DNA of 63,967 bases, the filler included, from Basidiobolus ranarum (taxonomy: Eukaryota), in the NCBI GenBank assembly GCA_040143965.1. It is 3 parts of 3 records of this genome, joined end to end, with 100 filler letters (N's around TTAATTAATTAA, not from the genome) between each part and the next. Parts side by side here need not be neighbours in the genome. Positions count along the whole stretch, not along the records: positions 1 to 22,323 come from JASJQH010000188.1; 2 more parts are not named here. One strand, written 5' to 3'. The notes below the pieces were generated by a model. The model saw only the letters and a list, made by a program, of their open reading frames with translations. It was not told the DNA's origin and did no database searches. Positions 2,993 through 15,145 of this stretch are shown one piece after another (within the stretch, counting starts at the first letter, position 1; every line of letters starts with the position of its first letter). A program made the position numbers and the translations under genes.

Positions 2993-5079
<2,087 letters not shown>

Positions 5080-6221
5080 GCAACCACGGTCCTTTTTAGA
5101 TGTGTAGAGCTATTGGAGGGCAAACGATCTCTTTGCAACATATCTTAATCTACGCGCTCTATTGTATACTAGCTTCGTTCAGAGATTCAACACTTCTTCC
5201 TCTTGTCCAAACCTGGAACACGAGATATTTTTCTTAAGACGACGATGATAAAATGATGTCACGCGGCCGCTATATCGAGAAACTATATTAATATGCTTTA
5301 CGTTAGCCACCGTGCAAGTATCCTCACCCTATTTGCATGGCGACACTTTATGTTGATTTATTGTATATGCATATATAATCCATCCATACTATTTTTTTGA
5401 TTTTTTGCATAATCCACCTATTGTTGCAATATAGAAGCCGTATTTCTACATTTTTTGATTTCCACTGTCATTCCTTCGCTTTCTTCAATTATGTATTTTT
5501 ATTTTCGTCTTCTGATCTTTTTAATTTTTCCCCTCTTTCATGGCACTTAACGAAGATAGAACCCAGTAATCAGCCGCATCCTATATTAACAAGTAATTTG
5601 CTACTCCATCTCCCTACTATTTACTCTACGATCACACTATCATTACATTTACTACGCTCAATAAACTGTAGATGTATTATTATCTCCCATCCTCCAATCC
5701 ACAGCCCATCTGCCAAGACACTGACGAGGCATACTGGATATTAATCATGAATTGGAACACTACCGCGAGAATCTTCCACAATTCAATCATCTCTTTTAAG
5801 GATTTCCAAATGCAGTAAGAATATTCTAAATATATCCATTTATGAAAGAAGAAAATAGCTAATGACGCTATTTTTGCCAGATACCTACGCCTTGAAACAG
5901 CGTGTTATTTTTGGACTTACTAAAGAATTCTAATCTGATTTCCCCAGACTTCGCCACCTTATAATTGGTCTTGGTAGATGAGAGATTTGATATCCTGGTC
6001 ACTTTTAATATTAGCATTGCACTGAATTATTGGTTTTGTGGATGTTCTTCTCAATTTTATTTTCACTTCACCTTTAACCTTTGCCAACGTAAAATCTCAT
6101 TTTTGAAATTCTTCCTTGGTTTCTTCAATTGCCCTTTTATTATTTTTGCTTTCAATATTTTTGTTTATATTTTTGTTGTTTTCTTTGTTTCAACTGTAAA
6201 ATCTAAAACAGCTCCTGAATT

Positions 6222-7593
6222 ATGTTTGACATATTGTCAACTGCTGTTCCCCTAGAATATCGTGCTTTGTTATTAATAGATCTCGGTGTATGGGGCTGGG
6301 GTTTTAACCTTCATATACTCGAGAATATCGGTATTGATGTTCGATTGTTATTCAATTTGGATGAAACTCGAAAGTTACCTCATCAAGTGATTTACCGCAT
6401 TGCTTTTGTGTTTACTTTCATCACTCTTTTCGGCCTTTGGATTTTCTGGAAGGTGGCCGAAAACGGACAAAATGCTTCGATCGTCACTGGCTTGTGCTAT
6501 TTTTCTGTTCTGTTTTTAACACTCTCTCCGTTCAATATATTCCATAGGAAAACTCGCTTCAATTTTCTAAGGTAATTGCTTATTTTTGGTTTTGACTTTC
6601 TATTGTTAACGTGAACTAAACTATTCCATAATTAGCGCCCTCAAACGAGTTATATTCTCTTCTCTTCGTTCAGAGGTTTCGTTTGGTGATGTAATACTAG
6701 CTGATATTTTGACAAGTTTTGCGAAAGTCGGAGTGGGAATCTACATCGCATTCTGCACCTTTCTTTCTTTCACCGATTCCGCTGAACTTTCATCTTCTGG
6801 TAGCTCCTCTGACCATTTCAAACTGGACATCATGGCTCCACTAATCACTGCGTAAGTTCTTCCCTTAGCGTCTGTTCTTTAGTCTTTTGACCTCATACTC
6901 ATATGTATTAAACATTATATAGATTGCCCTTTATTTTTAGACTGCGTCAATGCATCTCGGAGTACCTATCTTCCCGAGATTCAGGTTCTAGACATTTGGC
7001 TAATGCTATAAAATACGCCTCGGCCTTTCCCGTAGTATTTTTTTCAGCTCTGATGCATCGTGAGGATGAGGATGAAAACAGTATACTATTTTCCCTATGG
7101 TATTGAGCATTTGACTGAATATATGTATAATAACGATTACTAAACAATTTCAAATGAATTTAGGCTTATGTTTGTTTTGTTTAATTCCATCTATTCATTT
7201 TACTGGGATGTAGTCATGGATTGGGACTTGGGGAATACACCATCCCAACAGAGTAAAAGTTCATTTCCCCCGTTGTTGCGACCGGTCTTGATGTTCCAAG
7301 AGCCAAGCATCTACTACTTGACCATCCTGTTGGATTTCTTTCTTCGCACTAGCTGGTCCTTGAAGTTATCAGATCACGCCCATTTGAAAGAAATCATTGC
7401 CAGTGGGTTTGTCATGGAGGGCGCCGAAATAATGAGACGTTGGTTATGGGTCTATTTCAGAGCGGAAAAAGAGTGGATTACTAAAAGATATGGTTCATCA
7501 ACTTTACGAGATTCCGCTAAATTCCATAACAATATCTACGCTCTTCAACACAATCGTATTGACGATTCTAATGACATGCCCTTGTCCCCTTAA
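6222..7593 (+). CDS. ERD1: EXS-domain membrane protein, Erd1-like; exons ~6222-6571, 6636-6851, 6923-7099, 7164-7593
   Basis: FGDVILADILTSFAK, PFIFRLRQC, HLANAIKYASAFP, NSIYSFYWDVVMDWDLG, EIMRRWLWVYFRAE; no SPX domain. Confidence 0.85.
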
Positions 7594-8271
7594 TACACCT
7601 GTACAACTAACCAATCGATTCCGAATAAATATCGGGGTATTAATTTTTAGAACAAATCAAAGCTCGAATGTCTTAGATTAATTAAGCATTCACTCGTAAG
7701 ATATAAATAAACTTCAATATTTTTATAATCTAAAAGTGCTTTAATGGCCATCGTCCAAATGAACTGCACAATTGGAGATATATTCCATCAATAAAAGTCA
7801 TGAGTTCGTACTTTTAGGAATGATATGTACTGATCATTCGATCGCATTATAACCGCGTTTGTAATCTCATTACCCAAGAACATCTACACATAGGTTGATG
7901 TCGTATCGAGTCTTATAGTCACAGTAAAACATGGTACATAAAACATATAGAAGACGCTATTATTAGTGAGTTGAAATTAGACTACAATACTGCGCCGTGT
8001 TGAAACTCGCTTCGTCGTTTGAAAGCGTTTCGGCCAAACGAATGGTTTCTTCAGACATTTTATATCGTTATCGAACACTAAACAATATATTGTCCGAAAT
8101 CTTGGTGAAACAATCCCACTACCTACATGTTGCATGCTTTTTCTTTTTCAAGTTTTACTTCTGATATGATTTCGGAACTACTAATTGATCCAGTACTGGT
8201 AGCTTAATCAATATATAAGACCGAATAACCCTATAGAGCAATTATCCTTAGATGTGCTCTGGTGCCATTCA

Positions 8272-11200
8272 ATGATGTCCAATATAGACTCCATGAGATA
8301 TGGATATCATCAACATGGGGGTATTCGTCCTTTGATGTATTTGGTACTGTTGCTCTTATCGTCAAGTTTACTACTTCCCGAAGCGTCGGCTTTCAGGAAC
8401 ACCGAAAAAGCTCGCTATTGGGATCATTCCTCTAATCCGTATCATACGGAGAGAGGAAAAAGTAATTCGAGAATGAGGCAGCGGCTTATTCCGCAAACTC
8501 GCTTATATGAGGTGGCTGCAATTCCGATGCCAATTGTATTCAACGCATGGGGAGACTATGATCCAAAGGGGCTTATGTTCACTTTAGAGCAAAATCTCGA
8601 ATATCTGAGCGGTCTACGTGAGCATGTGCTAGATTTAGTCAGTCAAAATTCCACTGAGTTGCCTATGGACTCTCTGGTTAAACCACTCGTGTTACGTTGT
8701 AATAAAGGCGATAAGATGTACATTAAATTCAAGAATTATATTGAAGGAAGTCAAGTCGGATTACATCCTCATATCGGGGAGTATGATATTGACGACGATG
8801 GAACTGCCGTCGGAAGCAATTCTAACATATTGTCAAGTTTCGGAGAAGAGAAGGAGTATACATGGCCTTGTATACATGAAGGAACTTTCATGATATCTGA
8901 CGGTGGTGACTATGATGGCTCTGATGATGGCACTATTGTGCATGGTCTCTTTGGTGCCATTATTGTTGAACCTAGAGGATCTCTTTGGACGGATCCAACT
9001 ACCGGTGAACCAACTGTAGATGGTATACATGTTGATATACATCCTTATCCATTGCATGGTGGCTGCCCTAAAAAGGACAATTATTATGAAGAAGATCCTA
9101 AATATTCTCATCCTGACTGTCCTTTCAGAGAGTTTTCGCTTTTCTTCCAAGATAAAGTTGGAATCCAAAACAAACGTCCCCCAACTGCTGATCCATGCAA
9201 GGGCCCTGATCAGACAGGAATCCCTAGAATTAACATTTTCAATTATCGCTCTGAGCCGATGAAAAACCGTGAACTGGCTTTATGGCGCAAGATAAACGAA
9301 GGGTTAATAACGGATGTAAATGGTGAAGAGCAACATCATTCCAGTTGGTTGTTTGGAGATCCAGCCACTCCAATATTTCGTGCATATGCTGGTGATCCTG
9401 TCAAGTACAGAGTTATTGACACTGGTATAACCGAAACTCACGTCTTTCATTTGCATGGACATCAGTGGAGTTCAGGAAGAGGTGATCGAGAGAGTACAAT
9501 TGTTGACTCATTTTCATTGTCGCCCTTAACTACTTGGTATGTGGACATTCATTACGGGGCTGGGTCTAGATTGAAGACTATCGGCGATGTGATTCTCCAT
9601 TGTCACTTATACGCTCACTTTGCAACTGGAATGTGGAGCATCATGCGAGTCATAGATCGTTATGAGGATGGTACAGATACTTATCCGGATGGATCTCCGA
9701 TTCCTAGATTGATTCCATTACCAGGTAGACCCCATCCTCCTTTAAAAAATGAGCGTCAGCCAGGTTTCCCCAACTTCATTGCTGGTACGCCCGGACAGAA
9801 ATCTCCTAGAGTTCCTTGGCCAGTAGAACTCTTTGGTGAAATTCCAGAAGGCTCTGACTACCGTCCTGCAACTGAAATAGAGATAGCTAGTATGAACTCG
9901 GATCCACAAATAGGAAACACTTTCACTCTGATTCCCACCCCTCGCGAGGTAACATCCCACTTTTTCAACGTCAGTATTATGACTCGCAGCGTTGAGTACA
10001 ATAAGTACGGATGGTATTATCCTCATGGTCATATGTATGCACCAGTAGAGAAAGTTCAACCAGATCCTGGGCACCCTGCTAGATACGACCCATTTACAAT
10101 GCGTGTTACCCAGAAGAGTGTCGCTGTAAGTCAGTACAACAACAACCTTCCACAGGTTATCAATGCCACAGCCTTTGATGCACAATTCCCTAGGTGTGAA
10201 GCAGTTGCTCATGAAGGTGAAGCTGGTATGCACGTGCATCTTGTCAAATTTGATGTATTGTCTAGTGACGGGGCGTCTGTAGGTTGGAATTTTATCAGTG
10301 GCGCGCGATATGGTAAATATCTCGTTAATCGTTGGTGGATTGACGATGCTTTGGGTCATGTCTTCTTTCACGATCATTTGTTCGCTAATTTCCGCCAGAA
10401 GAAAGGACTTTATGGTATCGCACCTGTATCACCTGAAGGATCCAAGTTCTACGATACTGTCGAAGCAAAGAAGGAGCAGCGCTATACACCCAGCGCAATA
10501 GTGGTAACTCCTAAGGAATCATTCCGAGAGCAAGTTCTCTTCATTGGTGATTTCACACCGGCATTTTATGCCAATGGCACTGCAATCCATCCACCTATTC
10601 GAAATGAATTGCAGGATCAAGGTATCGTTGTTATGAATTATAGAAATGAGCCACTGGTAGAAAGGAAAGGACTGGATCCTTCCGAGTGGTTCAGTAGTAA
10701 AAATCAATACGGAGATCCTTCCACTACATTATTTGAAGCTTACCGCGGAGATAATATCATTGTGCGTCTTGTACAAGGTGCTCACGATAAGCCGCATAGC
10801 TTCGAGATGCATGGAATGCGTTGGCAAAAGTTTAACGATATTTCAAAAGTTAACGTTACAAGTCAACAAACCATAGGGGTTTCTGAAGGTTTTACATTCA
10901 GAATTCAAGCTGATTATAGTGCAGGTGACCACATTTACAAACTTGGCGGCATTGATGATTTGTGGATTGGTAATTGGGGCATAACTCGTGTGTATGATAA
11001 ACCACAAAAACACTTGGCCAAAATTCCAGGATCTGGTGATATGGTATCTTCTTTCTATCATTCGTCTTCACTGAAGAACATAGCACAGAACAGATATTCC
11101 AATACGAGGACTTCTGCAAGAGAGACCAGTAAATATAAGACAAGAGTAAGTGATGTGCGCAAATATTTCCTAACTGCTAAGCGGCAAGAAATTGTATACA

Positions 11201-12282
11201 ATTCTGATGGGTGGAGTGATCCATATGGCCTGATCTACTGCTTGACCGGGTATCAGGAGCCACACTCACCTGAAGTCATCAAACCTGAACAAGGTGAATG
11301 TTTCAATGTACAAGACGATAAGGTTGATCCGTTAATTATTCGAGGTTTAGTAGGAGAGCGTATCCTACTTTACTTGCATAATGGGCTTCCTAAACATATG
11401 AGTCCTGAACCTTTCCCTATCCCAGTTCCTGCCGATGATCCACATCTTCGAGCTTCGAACAGAGTGTCTATTCATGCTCCGCTCATACAGCATGATGTAA
11501 GATATGATGATGGCAGCAATGTTGGCCGGAATCCAGATTCTACCGTCGGGCCAGGAGAAACAAGAGTATACAGTTGGTTCGCTGATCAGCATTTAGGAGC
11601 TCTTCCACTGCAGGATCATGCTGATGTTCGTAACCATAAGCACCATGGAATAATAGGAGCGCTTGTTATCTTAGATTCTCATCATGTGCCGGATAGGTGG
11701 TATGGTGCTGAAGCTAACATCCACCGACGTTCCCAGTGTGGGTTAGGGGAACTGATATATCAAGATAAAGTGGTTATATTACAATCCGGCCTACGCTTGT
11801 TTCAAAATAATGAACTTAAAGCACCAATTCCCTACGCCAACAAGTCGCCGTATCAGATTCTATCCAACTTTACTGCTCCTGTTCTTGGGGAACAGGGAAT
11901 TGACTTCCAGGATGCGGGATTGAAAGCCATGAACTATCGCACCCAGCCTGCTAGTAGACCTAGTTGGCTGCAGAATGATCAGCCCTCGACCACCGTATTC
12001 CACTCACAGGCGAATGCTCACCAAGTCCTTAATGTTGTCAGCGGTTTGGATAAACCGAGAGCATTATCCTTCCATCTCCATGGTCATACCTGGATGGATC
12101 AATTAAAGTCTCCCGAGCTTGGATATTCTTCTGTCAACAATGCACTCAGTACCGGTTCAACTGTAGCGAATTCCTTTGTAGCTAGCAACAGCACCGGAGA
12201 TTGGGCGTATCGAACCGGAAGCCTAAACGCTGAATACTTAATAGAAAGTTGGGGCATTTTCCGGGTGAGTGCTGAACTATAA
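8272..12282 (+). CDS. Large secreted multicopper oxidase, MnxG (bacterial manganese oxidase)-like, intronless; start ATG uncertain (8272/8275/8293/8335)
   Basis: ~1330-aa uninterrupted ORF with a signal-peptide-like MYLVLLLLSSSLLLPEASA. Copper motifs: LHPH, HVFHLHGHQW (~9439), HCHLYAHFATGMW (~9598, type-1 Cu), MHVHLVKFD (~10228), FFHDHLF (~10363), HSFEMHG, QDHADVRNHKHHG, FHLHGHTW. Confidence 0.85.
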   Translation: MMSNIDSMRYGYHQHGGIRPLMYLVLLLLSSSLLLPEASAFRNTEKARYWDHSSNPYHTERGKSNSRMRQRLIPQTRLYEVAAIPMPIVFNAWGDYDPKGLMFTLEQNLEYLSGLREHVLDLVSQNSTELPMDSLVKPLVLRCNKGDKMYIKFKNYIEGSQVGLHPHIGEYDIDDDGTAVGSNSNILSSFGEEKEYTWPCIHEGTFMISDGGDYDGSDDGTIVHGLFGAIIVEPRGSLWTDPTTGEPTVDGIHVDIHPYPLHGGCPKKDNYYEEDPKYSHPDCPFREFSLFFQDKVGIQNKRPPTADPCKGPDQTGIPRINIFNYRSEPMKNRELALWRKINEGLITDVNGEEQHHSSWLFGDPATPIFRAYAGDPVKYRVIDTGITETHVFHLHGHQWSSGRGDRESTIVDSFSLSPLTTWYVDIHYGAGSRLKTIGDVILHCHLYAHFATGMWSIMRVIDRYEDGTDTYPDGSPIPRLIPLPGRPHPPLKNERQPGFPNFIAGTPGQKSPRVPWPVELFGEIPEGSDYRPATEIEIASMNSDPQIGNTFTLIPTPREVTSHFFNVSIMTRSVEYNKYGWYYPHGHMYAPVEKVQPDPGHPARYDPFTMRVTQKSVAVSQYNNNLPQVINATAFDAQFPRCEAVAHEGEAGMHVHLVKFDVLSSDGASVGWNFISGARYGKYLVNRWWIDDALGHVFFHDHLFANFRQKKGLYGIAPVSPEGSKFYDTVEAKKEQRYTPSAIVVTPKESFREQVLFIGDFTPAFYANGTAIHPPIRNELQDQGIVVMNYRNEPLVERKGLDPSEWFSSKNQYGDPSTTLFEAYRGDNIIVRLVQGAHDKPHSFEMHGMRWQKFNDISKVNVTSQQTIGVSEGFTFRIQADYSAGDHIYKLGGIDDLWIGNWGITRVYDKPQKHLAKIPGSGDMVSSFYHSSSLKNIAQNRYSNTRTSARETSKYKTRVSDVRKYFLTAKRQEIVYNSDGWSDPYGLIYCLTGYQEPHSPEVIKPEQGECFNVQDDKVDPLIIRGLVGERILLYLHNGLPKHMSPEPFPIPVPADDPHLRASNRVSIHAPLIQHDVRYDDGSNVGRNPDSTVGPGETRVYSWFADQHLGALPLQDHADVRNHKHHGIIGALVILDSHHVPDRWYGAEANIHRRSQCGLGELIYQDKVVILQSGLRLFQNNELKAPIPYANKSPYQILSNFTAPVLGEQGIDFQDAGLKAMNYRTQPASRPSWLQNDQPSTTVFHSQANAHQVLNVVSGLDKPRALSFHLHGHTWMDQLKSPELGYSSVNNALSTGSTVANSFVASNSTGDWAYRTGSLNAEYLIESWGIFRVSAEL

Positions 12283-13203
12283 ATCTCAAAGTAATAAATG
12301 TATGAATTGCTATATTACGTGCTTTATATCTGAAATGTATGGAGCAAACAATTTATATAATACTTTATAACACTACTGGTACAACGCACTAGGCCTGAAT
12401 ATAGAATAATTAGCTTTTCTTTGTTAAATGATTTTTACACACCTGTTACAAGATGCAGCCAAAGAAAGATGAAATAACTGTCAAGCAGAGTGAACTTCGC
12501 ACATGTTCATATGTTTAGCTTACTTTTGTGGTCGTTATGTCAACTTTTTGAACTAGATATTCACAACACGAATTGGATTTAGAATGTTATCTTGCTACGT
12601 TCTAAAGTCAAGTTTTGAGAATATGAACTCAACCTGTGGGCAAGTGACATTTTGAAATTGTAGACTTCCCCAGTATTGAATGTGTTGTTCCCGCGAGCTC
12701 CTCTCACTTTGACTACCCATTGGTGCTCACTCCAACATATTGTTATTCTGAATGCCTTTTCTCTGACATAGAATAGTGGTTCAACTTCACAATACTACCT
12801 TAAGATGCAAGCACTGGAAACATCTATATACAGTATACTAAAATTTCCGTAAATAAAGGTATGTACCTATCTATTGAAATATCATCAGATCCATGTTCGA
12901 TATCGTATAAATACCAATCTTTAATCCTTGTGTCGGTTATGCCATCTAAATTTTTTTGGACTAAACCTAGTTTGAACTGGTCATTTCGGCTCTGTTCAGC
13001 TAGAAACATTCATGAGGTTGATTGTTCATTTGGATAAAAATTGGGCAAACAGAACTTCATTTGATGTTACTCGTGCGAGATTGCTTGATCATGGTCCCAG
13101 GAAAATATGCGACTGTAGCCAGTTAATTATAATAGTATTTCAATTTAGGTCGTCACTTTCAGAGTCGGACCCATAGGATGACACTAGATTCAACGACTCT
13201 ACA

Positions 13204-14183
13204 CTATTCTGAGTCTAATTTAAAACTCAAATCAATTATCTCTTCGGGATGAATGCCACGATGGTTTGAAGGTTCATTCTAAACGATAACAAAAGTAAAG
13301 CTAATACTTACCGAAGGGCTATCTTTGTGAGTCAAAATATCATTCAACTTGATTTTTTTTCGAAATTCTAACGGTTGATTTTGGTGCTCCTCACAGAGAG
13401 TTGTTACGCTTACTGTTGGTTCTAATATTTTGTTTTCATCTTGCTCTAATACCCTGAGTCTAATGGTAGGTCCTTTGTCAGTATCGAAATCGAGTGAACC
13501 AGCCTCGGAAGTCTCTTTCGCTATTGAATTAAACTCCACACACAAATGAGTAAGAAAAAGACATAATAAATATACGATCCCTCTTACATACTTTCCGTTT
13601 CGAATAGTACTTATGTGCTTCACCAGGCGTACCTATTGTGCTAGGATCCAAGACTTTTACTTTTTTTACAAACCTACATTGAAAAATGTTAAGACTGTTT
13701 ATCAATAGAGCTATTAGTTTTCAAGATTTACCTTTCATACTCTCTTTCCAGGAGTTCTAGCCGCTCTTGAAATTCAGAAATCTTCTTCTCTGGCTACGAT
13801 AATATTTAAAAATAATCTTGGCAGTATAAACTTTACTAGATATACTTACGTAGTTTCGAACCCCTGATAGATGGTGTAAACAGTAACTAATATCTCTTTT
13901 GATAGAGGGAATCCAGTTTTTAATTTCGGAAGCGGTATTCAAGGTTTTCTATTTATAAGTTGATGTCAAACACATGAGACGATTGAAGAATACCACGAAA
14001 AACTTCCTACCAGAGGGGGGCGCTTTTGGATTTTGTCTTTTAAGGCTATAAAGAATAAGTTAAGTTTTGGCTTTATACAAAGTGATATCGAACCAGTAAG
14101 TATCATTTATATGTACATTCTTCTTCCTGTGCTCGTAAAAACCGATTGAGGCCCGAAAGTTGTTTCTCGCTATTTCGCGACAT
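13204..14183 (-). CDS. Multi-exon gene with a divergent Isy1-like (splicing factor) N-terminus
   Basis: Spliced reading MSRNSEKQLSGLNRFLRAQEEE..KRPPLENLNTASEIKNWIPSIKRDISYCL..KISEFQERLELLEREYER..VKKVKVLDP resembles Isy1 MARNxEKA...RP...W...I..EI. Several GT-AG introns. Confidence 0.5.
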
Positions 14184-14441: not shown

Positions 14442-15145
14442 TTACAAATCTTCATCTTCTTCAGGAAGAGGCTGGTTGGCAGCAGCCTCTAGTTCTCTGT
14501 TATATTCAGCCATAAGAGCAGGATCAACTTGAACCTCGGGAGGGGCCAATGCGGGAGAAGCGACGAATTCGAGGTTAGGGTTGCCAACCAATTTACGAGC
14601 TAACCACAAGAAAGGCTTCTCGAAGTTGTAGTTGGATTTGGCGGAAATATCGTAGTATTGAAGGTTCTTCTTACGATGGAAAGTGATGGTCTTAGCCTTG
14701 ACCTTTCTTTCCTTGATATCAACCTTGTTACCACAGAGAACAATAGGAATGTTTTCACAAACACGGACCAAATCACGATGCCAGTTAGGAACATTCTTGT
14801 AAGTAATACGGGAAGTGACATCAAACATGATGATGGCACATTGGCCTTGGATGTAGTAACCATCACGAAGACCACCAAACTTCTCCTGACCAGCGGTATC
14901 CCAAGTATTGAAGCAAATGGCACCGAAGTTGGTATGGAAAGTCAAAGGATGAACTTCGACACCAAGGGTAGCAACATATTTCTTTTCGAACTCACCAGTC
15001 AAATGGCGCTTGACGAAGGTAGTCTTACCGGTACCACCGTCACCAACTAATGAAACAAATGTTAGACAATGTAACAGCAGAGATATAACATTTTAAAAAA
15101 ATACCAACCAAGAACGAGTTTGAAAGTGGGCATTTCGGCGGCCAT
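14442..15145 (-). CDS. GSP1: Ran GTPase (Gsp1/Spi1); exons 15145-15109 and 15046-14442
   Basis: [14 protein letters not shown] across the intron, WDTAGQE, NKVD, ISAK, acidic tail PEEDEDL. Confidence 0.97.

Follow-up and report, generated by a model that had tools for sequence, protein, structure and literature searches.

A Bacillus-MnxG-type multicopper oxidase gene of apparently ancient bacterial origin in the fungus Basidiobolus ranarum

MnxG-type multicopper oxidases (MCOs) are the best understood makers of biological manganese oxides, and they are treated as prokaryotic enzymes. A candidate gene of this type in the genome assembly of the fungus Basidiobolus ranarum raises the questions of whether it is genuinely fungal, how it came to be there, and what its product may do. 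These questions are considered here for a window of 63,967 nucleotides (64 kb), which is the whole stretch of DNA that was analysed. The gene and its flanking neighbours are the following:

8272..12282, + strand: single-exon coding sequence of a predicted six-domain MnxG-type multicopper oxidase (ORF listing, translation, Pfam PF07731/PF07732, 9bxa_A match, AF2 model, Foldseek)
6219..7593, + strand: upstream neighbour, intron-split EXS/ERD1-family gene (Pfam EXS matches of E 1.6e-19 and 4.2e-33, each in its own ORF)
14445..15092, - strand: downstream neighbour, Ras-superfamily (Ran-like) GTPase exon (Pfam Ras, E 2.7e-45)

The ORF listing (standard code, ATG starts) gives a single uninterrupted frame of 1336 amino acids plus stop, which is exactly the 4-kb intronless ORF of the preliminary description; the stop-to-stop frame opens at 8203, and tblastn finds one copy of the gene in the window. 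In the assembly, the ORF is joined to eukaryotic genes on both sides. The surroundings had been called rich in introns, and this is true of the EXS/ERD1-type gene, spread over at least two ORFs (6219-6572, matching profile positions 2-108 of EXS, and 7144-7590, matching 230-330), but not of the neighbouring DEAD-box helicase, which is one ORF of 657 amino acids (3106-5079). Other eukaryotic neighbours are a tetraspanin and an RGS gene, and farther along the window there are eEF1A-like, SMI1/KNR4, TANGO2, amino-acid permease, and GDA1/CD39 genes. A search for flanking signs of mobility, in the form of repeats of at least 18 nt, found none apart from one chance-like pair. The MnxG-like gene is intact and stands in a eukaryotic context.

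Four stretches of the encoded protein are important for its identification:

8272..8391, + strand: N-terminal extension, residues 1-40, with a charged n-region, the hydrophobic core LMYLVLLLLSSSLLL and then PEASA, read by eye from the sequence
9439..9633, + strand: putative domain-2 copper block, residues 390-454 (type-1 (T1) copper H390, C444, H449, and axial M454; trinuclear half H393, H395, H443, and H445)
10231..10377, + strand: putative domain-3 copper block, residues 654-702 (H654, H656, H700, and H702, the other trinuclear half)
11038..11142, + strand: low-confidence linker joining the protein halves, residues about 923-957 (pLDDT <50, poor alignment to Oceanobacillus MnxG)

The Pfam profiles Cu-oxidase_2 and Cu-oxidase_3 match the protein with E 3.5e-10 each (PF07731, 40.2 bits against a cut-off of 20.4; PF07732, 40.4 bits against 21), which places it in the multicopper oxidase superfamily, and the MnxG chain of the Protein Data Bank, 9bxa_A, matches with E 5.8e-193. 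Because of these scores, the copper motifs can be regarded as far beyond chance. They are located at residues 390-399 (HVFHLHGHQW), 443-455 (HCHLYAHFATGMW), 653-661 (MHVHLVKFD), and 698-704 (FFHDHLF), so the order first described for them, with two in the N-terminal half and two after it, is correct in the translation. We take the standard MCO motif rule to assign each ligand to the T1 site or to the trinuclear cluster, an assignment made by that rule and not from a metal-bearing structure. Read in this way, the set at the interface of domains 2 and 3 is complete: the T1 His, Cys, His, and axial Met, together with eight trinuclear His in four HxH motifs. The domain-2 ligands are kept in all 24 bacterial rows and in 13 of 14 fungal rows, where the sole miss comes from a gap in P0121, a row that is partial at its N-terminus; in the 40-row alignment A2 they do not vary (H314, H317, H319, H367, C368, H369, H373, and M378, to which 76 is added for residues of the window protein). 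In domain 3, H654 and H656 are kept in 14/14 fungal and 24/24 bacterial rows, and H700 and H702 in 13/14 (P0030 has a gap) and 24/24, respectively. Beyond the canonical sites, further conserved histidines (H165, H224, H838, H842, H1068, H1122, H1125, and H1270) are common to the Bacillus-type enzymes, while C309 and C642 are present in the bacterial sister clade too and absent from the Bacillota rows.

The likeness to Bacillus-type MnxG extends over the full length of the protein. Residues 77-1336 align, at 32% identity over 1292 columns, to residues 7-1212 of an Oceanobacillus MnxG whose operon context was verified by upstream ORFs matching MnxE (E 1e-34) and MnxF (E 1.5e-35) of 9bxa. An AF2 model, limited to 1200 amino acids (residues 77-1276, the last 60 residues left out), has a pLDDT of 86.1 and a pTM of 0.85, and Foldseek superposes it on 9bxa_A with TM 0.84/0.83 over 1247 columns at 32% identity; the linker corresponds to model segments 847-849, 852-855, and 864-881 (+76), at pLDDT <50. 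The model thus predicts the six-cupredoxin-domain fold of MnxG. Fungal laccases and Fet3 are three-domain proteins of about 500-650 amino acids with the HCH motif near the C-terminus. A protein of this class was considered and rejected, since the window protein has 1336 amino acids, carries HCH at residue 443 and gives only partial laccase matches (TM about 0.18, normalised to the query). The contrast first drawn, MnxG-like and not laccase- or Fet3-like, is borne out by this value and by the Oceanobacillus alignment, and the window protein is not derived from the fungal three-domain MCO lineage. The only significant NCBIfam model was NF041487 (E 2.6e-60), built on the MnxG of Pseudomonas putida GB-1 (about 1,900 amino acids). 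This equivalog was also rejected, with 203.7 bits against a cut-off of 3100. Controls gave 322.6 bits for Bacillus-type MnxG, 268 for the bacterial sister P0013, and 214.5 for the chytrid P0009; since a genuine Bacillus-type MnxG reaches just 322.6 bits, the Pseudomonas type is a different subfamily, and NF041487 does not cover the Bacillus type.

The N-terminus is where the fungal proteins depart from their bacterial relatives. Residues 1-40 are read as a predicted signal peptide, cut after A-S-A; the alternative start M22 would leave a signal of 19 residues. Most full-length fungal homologues have an extension of 45-90 residues with a hydrophobic segment, and the nine bacterial homologues inspected start 5-25 residues ahead of the conserved R-Y-x-V block without any such segment. 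The secretion signal proposed at the outset is thus upheld as a secretion-type, fungal-specific N-terminus, as judged from the sequences.

With regard to origin, fungal homologues were sampled by word-indexed searches, with the best 120 matches listed per search. The fungal rows comprise 14 sequences of eight species, namely three Basidiobolus species (window included) and five chytrid species of two orders; the 13 relatives of the window protein come from B. ranarum, B. meristosporus, and five species of Spizellomycetales/Rhizophlyctidales chytrids, and the lone unnamed row of the clade, P0121, is Borealophlyctis nickersoniae. IQ-TREE (LG+C20+F+G4 PMSF; 48 rows, 1206 columns) unites the 14 rows in a single clade (100/100), sister to a bacterial clade of 22 rows (100/99). 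A FastTree of 142 rows recovers the same fungal clade nested in bacteria. Both trees were midpoint-rooted, and all trees include rows flagged for deviant composition; rooting with 11 distant, longer homologues, used in FastTree only, places the fungi within a clade of 44 rows (100), with the Bacillota MnxG group outside. The composition of the gene is that of its host: GC (0.436) and GC3 (0.366) are inside the range of 12 other ORFs of the window, and its RSCU correlation with the pooled host ORFs is 0.797, compared with 0.25-0.80 for each host ORF against the remaining ones and -0.57 to 0.61 for eight bacterial homologue genes. The codon usage of the gene matches the host.

These trees point to a bacterial ancestry of the fungal MnxG-like family. 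Because 14 fungal sequences from eight species form one clade and the composition is host-like, the family is old, duplicated, and compositionally ameliorated, and not a fresh acquisition. The horizontal acquisition from bacteria suggested in the preliminary description survives as a fungal clade nested in a bacterial radiation, but the event was neither private to this chromosome nor recent. Likewise, the nesting that was expected among bacterial proteins is seen, although the closest homologues are fungal. A broad, vertically inherited fungal clade had been named as the outcome that would speak against transfer. This outcome is seen in part, as the closest homologues do form a fungal clade; that clade is narrow and patchy and not broad, and plain vertical descent throughout Fungi is likewise unsupported. 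Taken jointly, the identity, integration, and ancient bacterial origin of the gene are quite likely.

Several histories could have produced this pattern. A recent bacterial acquisition private to the lineage, a contaminant or a chimeric join in the assembly would agree with a 4-kb intronless ORF whose bacterial homologues reach 39% identity among the matches listed, but it is extremely improbable and close to refuted, given the orthologues that two further Basidiobolus species carry at 70-73% identity on contigs of 11-83 kb, the fungal-type N-terminal extension common to the orthologues, the eukaryotic genes on both sides, and a codon usage which resembles that of the host and not that of most bacterial homologue genes. 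For an old gain, the relationships among the fungal copies are informative. Two copy types, A (Fimicolochytrium_a, Borealophlyctis_b) and B, occur in each of the chytrid orders, and Basidiobolus is sister to the entire B-type chytrid clade (100/99). The AU test rejects a monophyletic chytrid group (p 0.00038, delta lnL 35, for a group chosen after the tree was seen); the Basidiobolus copies nest in chytrid diversity, a placement that calls for an ancient duplication followed by losses or else for a transfer from fungus to fungus.

The transfer, whose probability falls somewhat below even, supposes that the gene was gained and duplicated in the ancestor of the Spizellomycetales/Rhizophlyctidales and that a B-type copy later passed into the Basidiobolus lineage, which lives in soil and dung as the chytrids do. 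It is favoured by a patchy distribution in only two distant lineages among the matches listed, by the AU result, and by the unusual richness of Basidiobolus in horizontal gene transfer (HGT) candidates, hundreds of which are catalogued in the available text of PMC7466969. Nonetheless, the AU group was picked post hoc, the flanks hold no sign of mobility beyond the chance-like repeat pair, and Basidiobolus lies outside the B-type chytrid crown, with long stems of about 0.49 each, so that any transfer would be older than the split of the two chytrid orders. This same position is what would be expected if the species split had followed the duplication, that is, if the bacterial gene was gained before chytrids and Basidiobolus diverged, duplicated early, and was lost elsewhere, Basidiobolus keeping the B-type copy only. 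The single fungal clade, the two copy types in both chytrid orders, and the complete amelioration agree with this second history, which is nevertheless doubtful, as it demands many independent losses: in other chytrid orders, Blastocladiomycota, Mucoromycota, the remaining zoopagomycetes, and Dikarya, groupings from which no named homologue appeared among the best 120 matches of either search or among the top representatives.

The locus as a whole is best explained as a functional fungal gene, adapted to its host, that encodes a putatively secreted six-cupredoxin-domain oxidase of the Bacillus-MnxG type. Its lineage would have entered fungi from bacteria once, long ago, and then duplicated, with Basidiobolus and Spizellomycetales/Rhizophlyctidales chytrids as the present survivors. 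The oxidase would be exported by the secretory pathway, single electrons would pass from a reduced substrate to the type-1 copper of domain 2 and on via the Cys-His bridge to the trinuclear cluster, where O2 would be reduced to water. The substrate is much less certain than the identity, the integration, and the ancient bacterial origin. Its class is most likely a metal cation, and by homology Mn(II), oxidised to a Mn(III)/Mn(IV) oxide, would be the leading candidate, at just under an even chance, with Fe(II)/Cu(I) or phenolics next in line. According to the available text of PMC5622069, activity in Bacillus requires at least the three genes mnxE, mnxF, and mnxG. As the first two are not found with the fungal gene, Mn(II) oxidation is no more than plausible here: jackhmmer detected no MnxE or MnxF in the 64-kb window, and a database search, which covered MnxE (MnxF was searched at loci and in the window), listed no fungal protein among 120 of 162 matches, those named by source being all from Bacillaceae-type genera. 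Among bacteria, jackhmmer found MnxE/MnxF in just 3 of 80 loci examined (77 were without), and none within 4 kb of the sister-clade genes. By analogy with most bacterial members, which appear to do so, the fungal enzyme probably works without MnxE/MnxF-type caps.

The prospect that the enzyme is not a Mn oxidase also comes near to an even one; its substrates would then be Fe(II), Cu(I), phenolics or pigment precursors, or it would have some other role, for example in cross-linking of the cell or spore wall. Other six-domain MCOs, such as ceruloplasmin, which the fold search also matched, are ferroxidases. The only characterised close relative is no more than 32-35% identical, MnxE/F are absent from the window, no fungal protein is among the named MnxE matches listed, and the bacterial sister clade has neither a characterised member nor conserved neighbours hinting at a substrate. 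Outside Lachnospiraceae, neighbour clusters other than MCOs reach at most 5 of the 80 bacterial loci. Against this reading stand the entire architecture and the extra conserved histidines, which the Bacillus-type enzymes have as well. Automatic annotation is the source of the "manganese oxidase" labels on metagenome homologues.

A conserved, ligand-complete MnxG-type clade, apparently adapted to secretion, is thus present in two distant fungal lineages, while the available text of a 2013 survey (PMC3600357) places MnxG homologues in bacteria and two archaea only, apart from the eukaryotic ceruloplasmin group. No published description of the fungal clade was found in the literature, nor any report of an enzyme for Mn cycling in early-diverging fungi. 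The significance is tempered by the hundreds of Basidiobolus HGT candidates in the available text of PMC7466969, whose supplementary tables may already include these genes, and by orthologues already deposited as hypothetical "cupredoxin" proteins. The family is a clean case in which an ancient transfer between domains can be put to the test, perhaps with a later passage from one fungus to another. It also serves as a natural experiment as to whether an enzyme of the MnxG type can dispense with MnxE/MnxF, and it supplies a candidate enzyme for the cycling of Mn in early-diverging fungi. The most far-reaching version, in which an anciently captured MnxG-type oxidase passed between fungal phyla and acts alone as a secreted Mn(II) oxidase that needs no MnxE3F3 cap, is unlikely. 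If true, it would supply Mn(III) or Mn oxide for the attack on recalcitrant organic matter in lineages without class II peroxidases, by a fungal route of Mn oxidation separate from laccase-like MCOs and superoxide.

Among known systems, the closest is the Mnx complex of Bacillus sp. PL-12 (MnxG-MnxE3F3; PDB 9bxa), the spore Mn(II)/Mn(III) oxidase. The fungal protein is collinear with its MnxG over the full length and shares the predicted six-domain fold, the order of copper motifs, the putative T1 and trinuclear sites at domains 2/3, and a similar size (1336 against 1217-1227 amino acids). It differs in its eukaryotic host, the secretion-type N-terminal extension, an identity of about one third, a sub-clade separate from the Bacillota enzymes, and partners that were not detected (MnxE and MnxF in the window, MnxE also among the named matches listed). 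The MnxG of Pseudomonas putida GB-1 is a distant homologue of the same superfamily and belongs to a larger subfamily whose operon partners are its own. The copper chemistry, the cupredoxin domains, and (predicted) secretion of the window protein are also features of fungal laccases, Fet3-type ferroxidases, and ascomycete laccase-like Mn oxidases. Ceruloplasmin, hephaestin, and factor V/VIII of animals also have six cupredoxin domains and come second among the structural matches (TM about 0.46-0.51), but identity is about 10-12% and their copper sites are placed otherwise. Finally, the sister group consists of stand-alone MnxG-like oxidases of Actinomycetota, Cyanobacteria, Bacteroidota, Alphaproteobacteria, and Myxococcota (for example in Oculatella, Geodermatophilus, Pontibacter, Belnapia, and Archangium), which are 35-39% identical over 94% of the query and differ in starting at the catalytic core, without a hydrophobic leader, and in their bacterial gene composition.

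The multicopper oxidase of the window (P0001) is read from one uninterrupted frame, and both the coordinates and length of this 4-kb ORF and the motifs quoted for it in the preliminary description were recovered identically in the ORF listing and in the translation. The gene lies among the following features:

3106-5079: DEAD-box helicase, a single 657-aa ORF
6219-6572 and 7144-7590: EXS/ERD1-family gene, split over separate ORFs
8272..12282 (+): oxidase, single ATG-to-stop frame of 1336 aa in the standard code ORF listing
12579-12794 (-), 12804-13037 (+) and 13279-13632 (-): short ORFs between the oxidase and the Ran-like gene
14445-15092 (-): Ras/Ran-type GTPase exon
After this exon: tetraspanin-like and RGS-domain ORFs
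Farther along the window: eEF1A-like, SMI1/KNR4, TANGO2, amino-acid permease and GDA1/CD39 ORFs

Judged by its Pfam-recognised ORFs, the window is eukaryotic throughout. The depiction of the oxidase as an intronless gene among intron-rich ones holds in part: it fits the split EXS gene but not the helicase, which occupies one ORF. The open frame of the oxidase starts at 8203, and the 680 bp upstream are AT-rich; on sequence reading only, they contain a TATA-like tatataag some 55 bp ahead of the ATG. A tblastn search with the protein as query found a single copy within the window, where there are no tRNA genes either; neither repeats nor mobile-element scars flank the gene, the sole match being an 18-nt pair inside the ORF. 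None of the three short ORFs at 12579-13632 has a Pfam match, and the gap of about 2.1 kb downstream of the oxidase may consist of UTRs only or contain a small gene that is not annotated.

The kinship with MnxG is well established by both sequence and fold. The top PDB sequence match is the MnxG chain of the Bacillus sp. PL-12 Mnx complex (9bxa_A, E 5.8e-193), in which residues 3-995 of the chain align with residues 77-1133 of the query; the remaining matches, with E values near 1e-10, are two-domain laccases matching over single domains. As a reference MnxG, the oxidase of an Oceanobacillus locus (L069) was taken; the two ORFs directly upstream of it match MnxE (E 1e-34) and MnxF (E 1.5e-35) of 9bxa, and it is therefore a genuine operon-linked MnxG. 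Residues 77-1336 of the window protein are collinear with residues 7-1212 of this enzyme, and the two are 32% identical across 1292 columns. Residues 77-1276 were modelled with AlphaFold2 from a 40-row alignment, the leader and the C-terminal 60 residues being left out, and the model reached a mean pLDDT of 86.1 and a pTM of 0.85. Compared with the PDB by Foldseek, it matches 9bxa_A with TM scores of 0.84/0.83, six-domain ceruloplasmins and factors V/VIII with 0.46-0.51, and three-domain laccases and CotA with TMq values of 0.17-0.20. The NCBIfam model for MnxG (NF041487, length 1894) was dropped as a membership test: the window protein scores 203.7 bits against a cut-off of 3100, and a genuine Bacillus-type MnxG, with 322.6 bits, falls under the cut-off as well, so that a miss is uninformative on Bacillus-type membership. 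This model describes the larger Pseudomonas-type enzymes.

A word-indexed search with the window protein returned 1152 proteins at E<=1e-3, and the identities that follow refer to the best 120 of these matches. The best 12 after the query are all fungal. The orthologues in Basidiobolus are 70-73% identical to the oxidase (73% for a B. ranarum homologue, 70% for each of two from B. meristosporus), followed by a second B. ranarum homologue (56%) and a third from B. meristosporus (53%). The homologues of Borealophlyctis, Rhizophlyctis rosea (two), Powellomyces hirtus, Spizellomyces punctatus and Fimicolochytrium jonesii share 38-44% identity, a second Fimicolochytrium protein appears farther down the list, and bacterial and metagenome proteins begin at 39%. 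Basidiobolus belongs to the Basidiobolomycota, Borealophlyctis to the Rhizophlyctidales and Fimicolochytrium to the Spizellomycetales. An exhaustive HMMER scan of query residues 77-1276 against 50%-identity representatives gave 1846 matches at E<=1e-3, the top five of which are again fungal (P0001 and its homologues P0006, P0012, P0030 and P0121). No further named eukaryotes were found among the best 120 matches of a profile search with a 14-row fungal alignment, a non-exhaustive search whose 7999 candidates lacked the known fungal rows P0007 and P0009-P0012. Short high-identity representatives were also considered as environmental fungal fragments, with 16 put in a tree and 10 of the 16 looked up by name. 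This possibility was rejected, given that those displayed group with bacteria or metagenome rows; among the short fragments, the label count is compatible with P0215 (B. ranarum) alone inside the fungal clade.

All fungal rows fall together in a FastTree phylogeny of 142 rows (support 100), and the 14 fungal rows form one clade (100/100) in an IQ-TREE analysis of 48 rows and 1206 columns under LG+C20+F+G4 by PMSF. In the latter tree, this clade is sister (100/99) to 22 bacterial rows from Actinomycetota, Cyanobacteria, Bacteroidota, Alphaproteobacteria and Myxococcota, and the Bacillota MnxG group lies on the far side. Rooting with 11 distant, longer homologues, by FastTree only and on a fast alignment, places the fungi within a 44-row clade (100) that leaves out the Bacillota group. 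Two cysteines, C309 and C642, are common to the fungi and the sister bacterial clade and missing in the Bacillota rows. The bacterial ancestry proposed for the gene is thus upheld by its position beside the 22 bacterial rows and inside the 44-row clade. Within bacteria, a homologue of Hymenobacter qilianensis (L066:4001-8124) is found on a 107-kb plasmid, so the MnxG-like family can be plasmid-borne in them.

The idea of a new arrival in this chromosome did not survive, since the oxidase belongs to an old fungal clade that includes chytrid proteins as well. Within this clade, an A-type chytrid pair (Fimicolochytrium_a and Borealophlyctis_b, 100/100) is sister to the rest, and the six rows from Basidiobolus (100/100) pair with the B-type chytrids, also six rows (100/100), as sister groups supported at 100/99. 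Basidiobolus itself holds two old subfamilies, one comprising the window protein and P0002-P0004 and the other P0005 and P0006. With its A- and B-type chytrid copies and two Basidiobolus subfamilies, the MnxG-like family is an old one in these fungi, where it has duplicated and been kept. Two histories are compatible with this: the gene may have been gained before the split of chytrids and Basidiobolus, duplicated early and then lost many times, or it may have been gained in the chytrid lineage and later passed to Basidiobolus. Forcing the eight chytrid rows to be monophyletic, in a 26-row set, costs 35 lnL units, and chytrid monophyly is rejected (p-AU 0.00038) for a group defined after the tree was seen. 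On a smaller scale, P0003 and P0004 of B. meristosporus are 70%-identical paralogues, each on a contig of 83,466 bp; they probably share one contig, which suggests a local duplication in this species.

No report of MnxG in Basidiobolus was found in the papers searched, nor, by titles and abstract openings of those listed, of a fungal MnxG or its horizontal transfer, and nothing relevant on Mn oxidation in these fungal taxa or on multicopper oxidases in early-diverging fungi was found among the papers listed. In a 2013 survey, the MnxG homologues recovered were confined to bacteria and two archaea (Vasin et al., PMC3600357). Candidates for horizontal transfer are reported to make up 2-5% of the Basidiobolus gene models, 61% of them intron-free; copper, oxidase and manganese are absent from the main text of that study, whose supplementary tables may include these genes (Tabima et al., 2020, PMC7466969). 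Likewise, multicopper, laccase and manganese are absent from the main text of a preprint on interkingdom transfer in 44 early-diverging fungi.

The fungal proteins carry a distinctive N-terminus. Nine bacterial homologues start 5-25 residues before a conserved R-Y-x-V-x-A...P-I-V-x-N block, and most of the full-length fungal proteins are longer by 45-90 residues, with a hydrophobic stretch among them. This stretch reads LMYLVLLLLSSSLLLPEASA/FRN in the window protein; a canonical A-x-A precedes the likely cut (slash), which agrees with the secretion signal claimed earlier and suggests that the protein would be secreted. On sequence reading, a classical signal peptide is predicted for the Powellomyces and Spizellomyces homologues, and an anchor-like segment for that of Rhizophlyctis. 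The A-type protein of Fimicolochytrium jonesii (P0012) carries a long N-terminal addition rich in Cys and a C-terminal tail rich in Ser, Thr and Pro, and its last segment is hydrophobic; together, these features are suggestive of a cell-surface-anchored form.

The composition of the gene is host-like. Its GC content is 0.436 and its GC3 0.366, compared with 0.38-0.46 and 0.32-0.44 for the 12 other window ORFs of at least 200 aa. Its RSCU values correlate with those of the pooled host ORFs at 0.797; the range is 0.25-0.80 when single host ORFs are compared with the remaining ones, and -0.57 to 0.61 for eight homologue genes from bacteria. The coding GC of the window (0.38-0.46) is well under the mean of 0.4865 given for fungal-origin genes of B. 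meristosporus CBS 931.73 (PMC7466969). Taken with the identity of no more than 70-73% to the B. ranarum and B. meristosporus orthologues, this marks the source of the DNA as a member or relative of the genus with a distinct composition. An antisense ORF inside the oxidase gene, at 9742-10377 (-) and 211 aa long, has a GC3 of 0.566, an outlier against all other window ORFs, and is most likely a shadow frame and no gene.

In Bacillus, mnxE, mnxF and mnxG are reported as the minimum for activity (PMC5622069), and MnxG is described as capped by a MnxE3F3 ring (review PMC13689576, citing a 2024 structure paper). A jackhmmer search with Oceanobacillus MnxE and MnxF against ORFs of at least 40 aa found homologues in 3 of the 80 bacterial loci around homologue genes (L069, L074 and L077, all Bacillota) and none in the window. 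MnxE gave 162 database matches, and among the 120 of them listed every one with a named source comes from Bacillaceae-type genera. The place of mnxE/mnxF in Bacillaceae is occupied in 21 of the 80 loci (Lachnospiraceae, Blautia and Mediterraneibacter types) by a gene directly upstream of the MnxG-like one that encodes a DUF2935 "conserved metalloprotein" of about 300 aa, similar to PDB 3d19 (for example L030:3056-3955). This Lachnospiraceae-type cluster is the sole large one, and no widely conserved neighbour was found across the 80 loci or, on the same comparison, for the bacterial sister clade. With MnxE/MnxF confined to 3 of the 80 loci and no widespread neighbour in the sister clade, most of the MnxG-like family appears to be stand-alone. 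The hypothesis that the window protein might oxidize Mn is weakened by the absence of MnxE/F from the window.

The copper motifs read in the translation are:

Residues 390-399: HVFHLHGHQW
Residues 443-455: HCHLYAHFATGMW
Residues 653-661: MHVHLVKFD
Residues 698-704: FFHDHLF

Pfam recognises Cu-oxidase_2 at residues 362-458 and Cu-oxidase_3 at residues 1062-1136, both above the gathering score. Conservation of the ligands was scored on an alignment of 14 fungal and 24 bacterial homologues. The type-1 ligands (H390, C444 and H449) and the domain-2 half of the trinuclear site (H393, H395, H443 and H445) are kept in 13 of 14 fungal and 24 of 24 bacterial rows, the sole fungal exception being the Borealophlyctis protein, which is N-terminally partial and has a gap there. 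Every row (14/14 and 24/24) has H654 and H656, H700 and H702 occur in 13/14 and 24/24, and the axial M454 (M378+76) is invariant across the 40-row alignment. Several non-canonical histidines are also conserved family-wide (H165, H224, H838, H842, H1068, H1122, H1125 and H1270). Two other positions vary: at residue 397 (window 9460-9462), where HLHGH ends, fungi and Bacillota have His and 14 sister-clade bacterial rows Tyr, and at residue 847 (window 10810-10812), Basidiobolus and most bacteria have His and 8/8 chytrid rows Tyr. Both are lineage-specific switches at conserved positions. Copper motif types 3 and 4 lie in domain 2 and types 1 and 2 in domain 3; because of this arrangement, the standard motif rule for multicopper oxidases would place the trinuclear cluster at the domain 2/3 interface, where it is likewise located in Bacillus MnxG.
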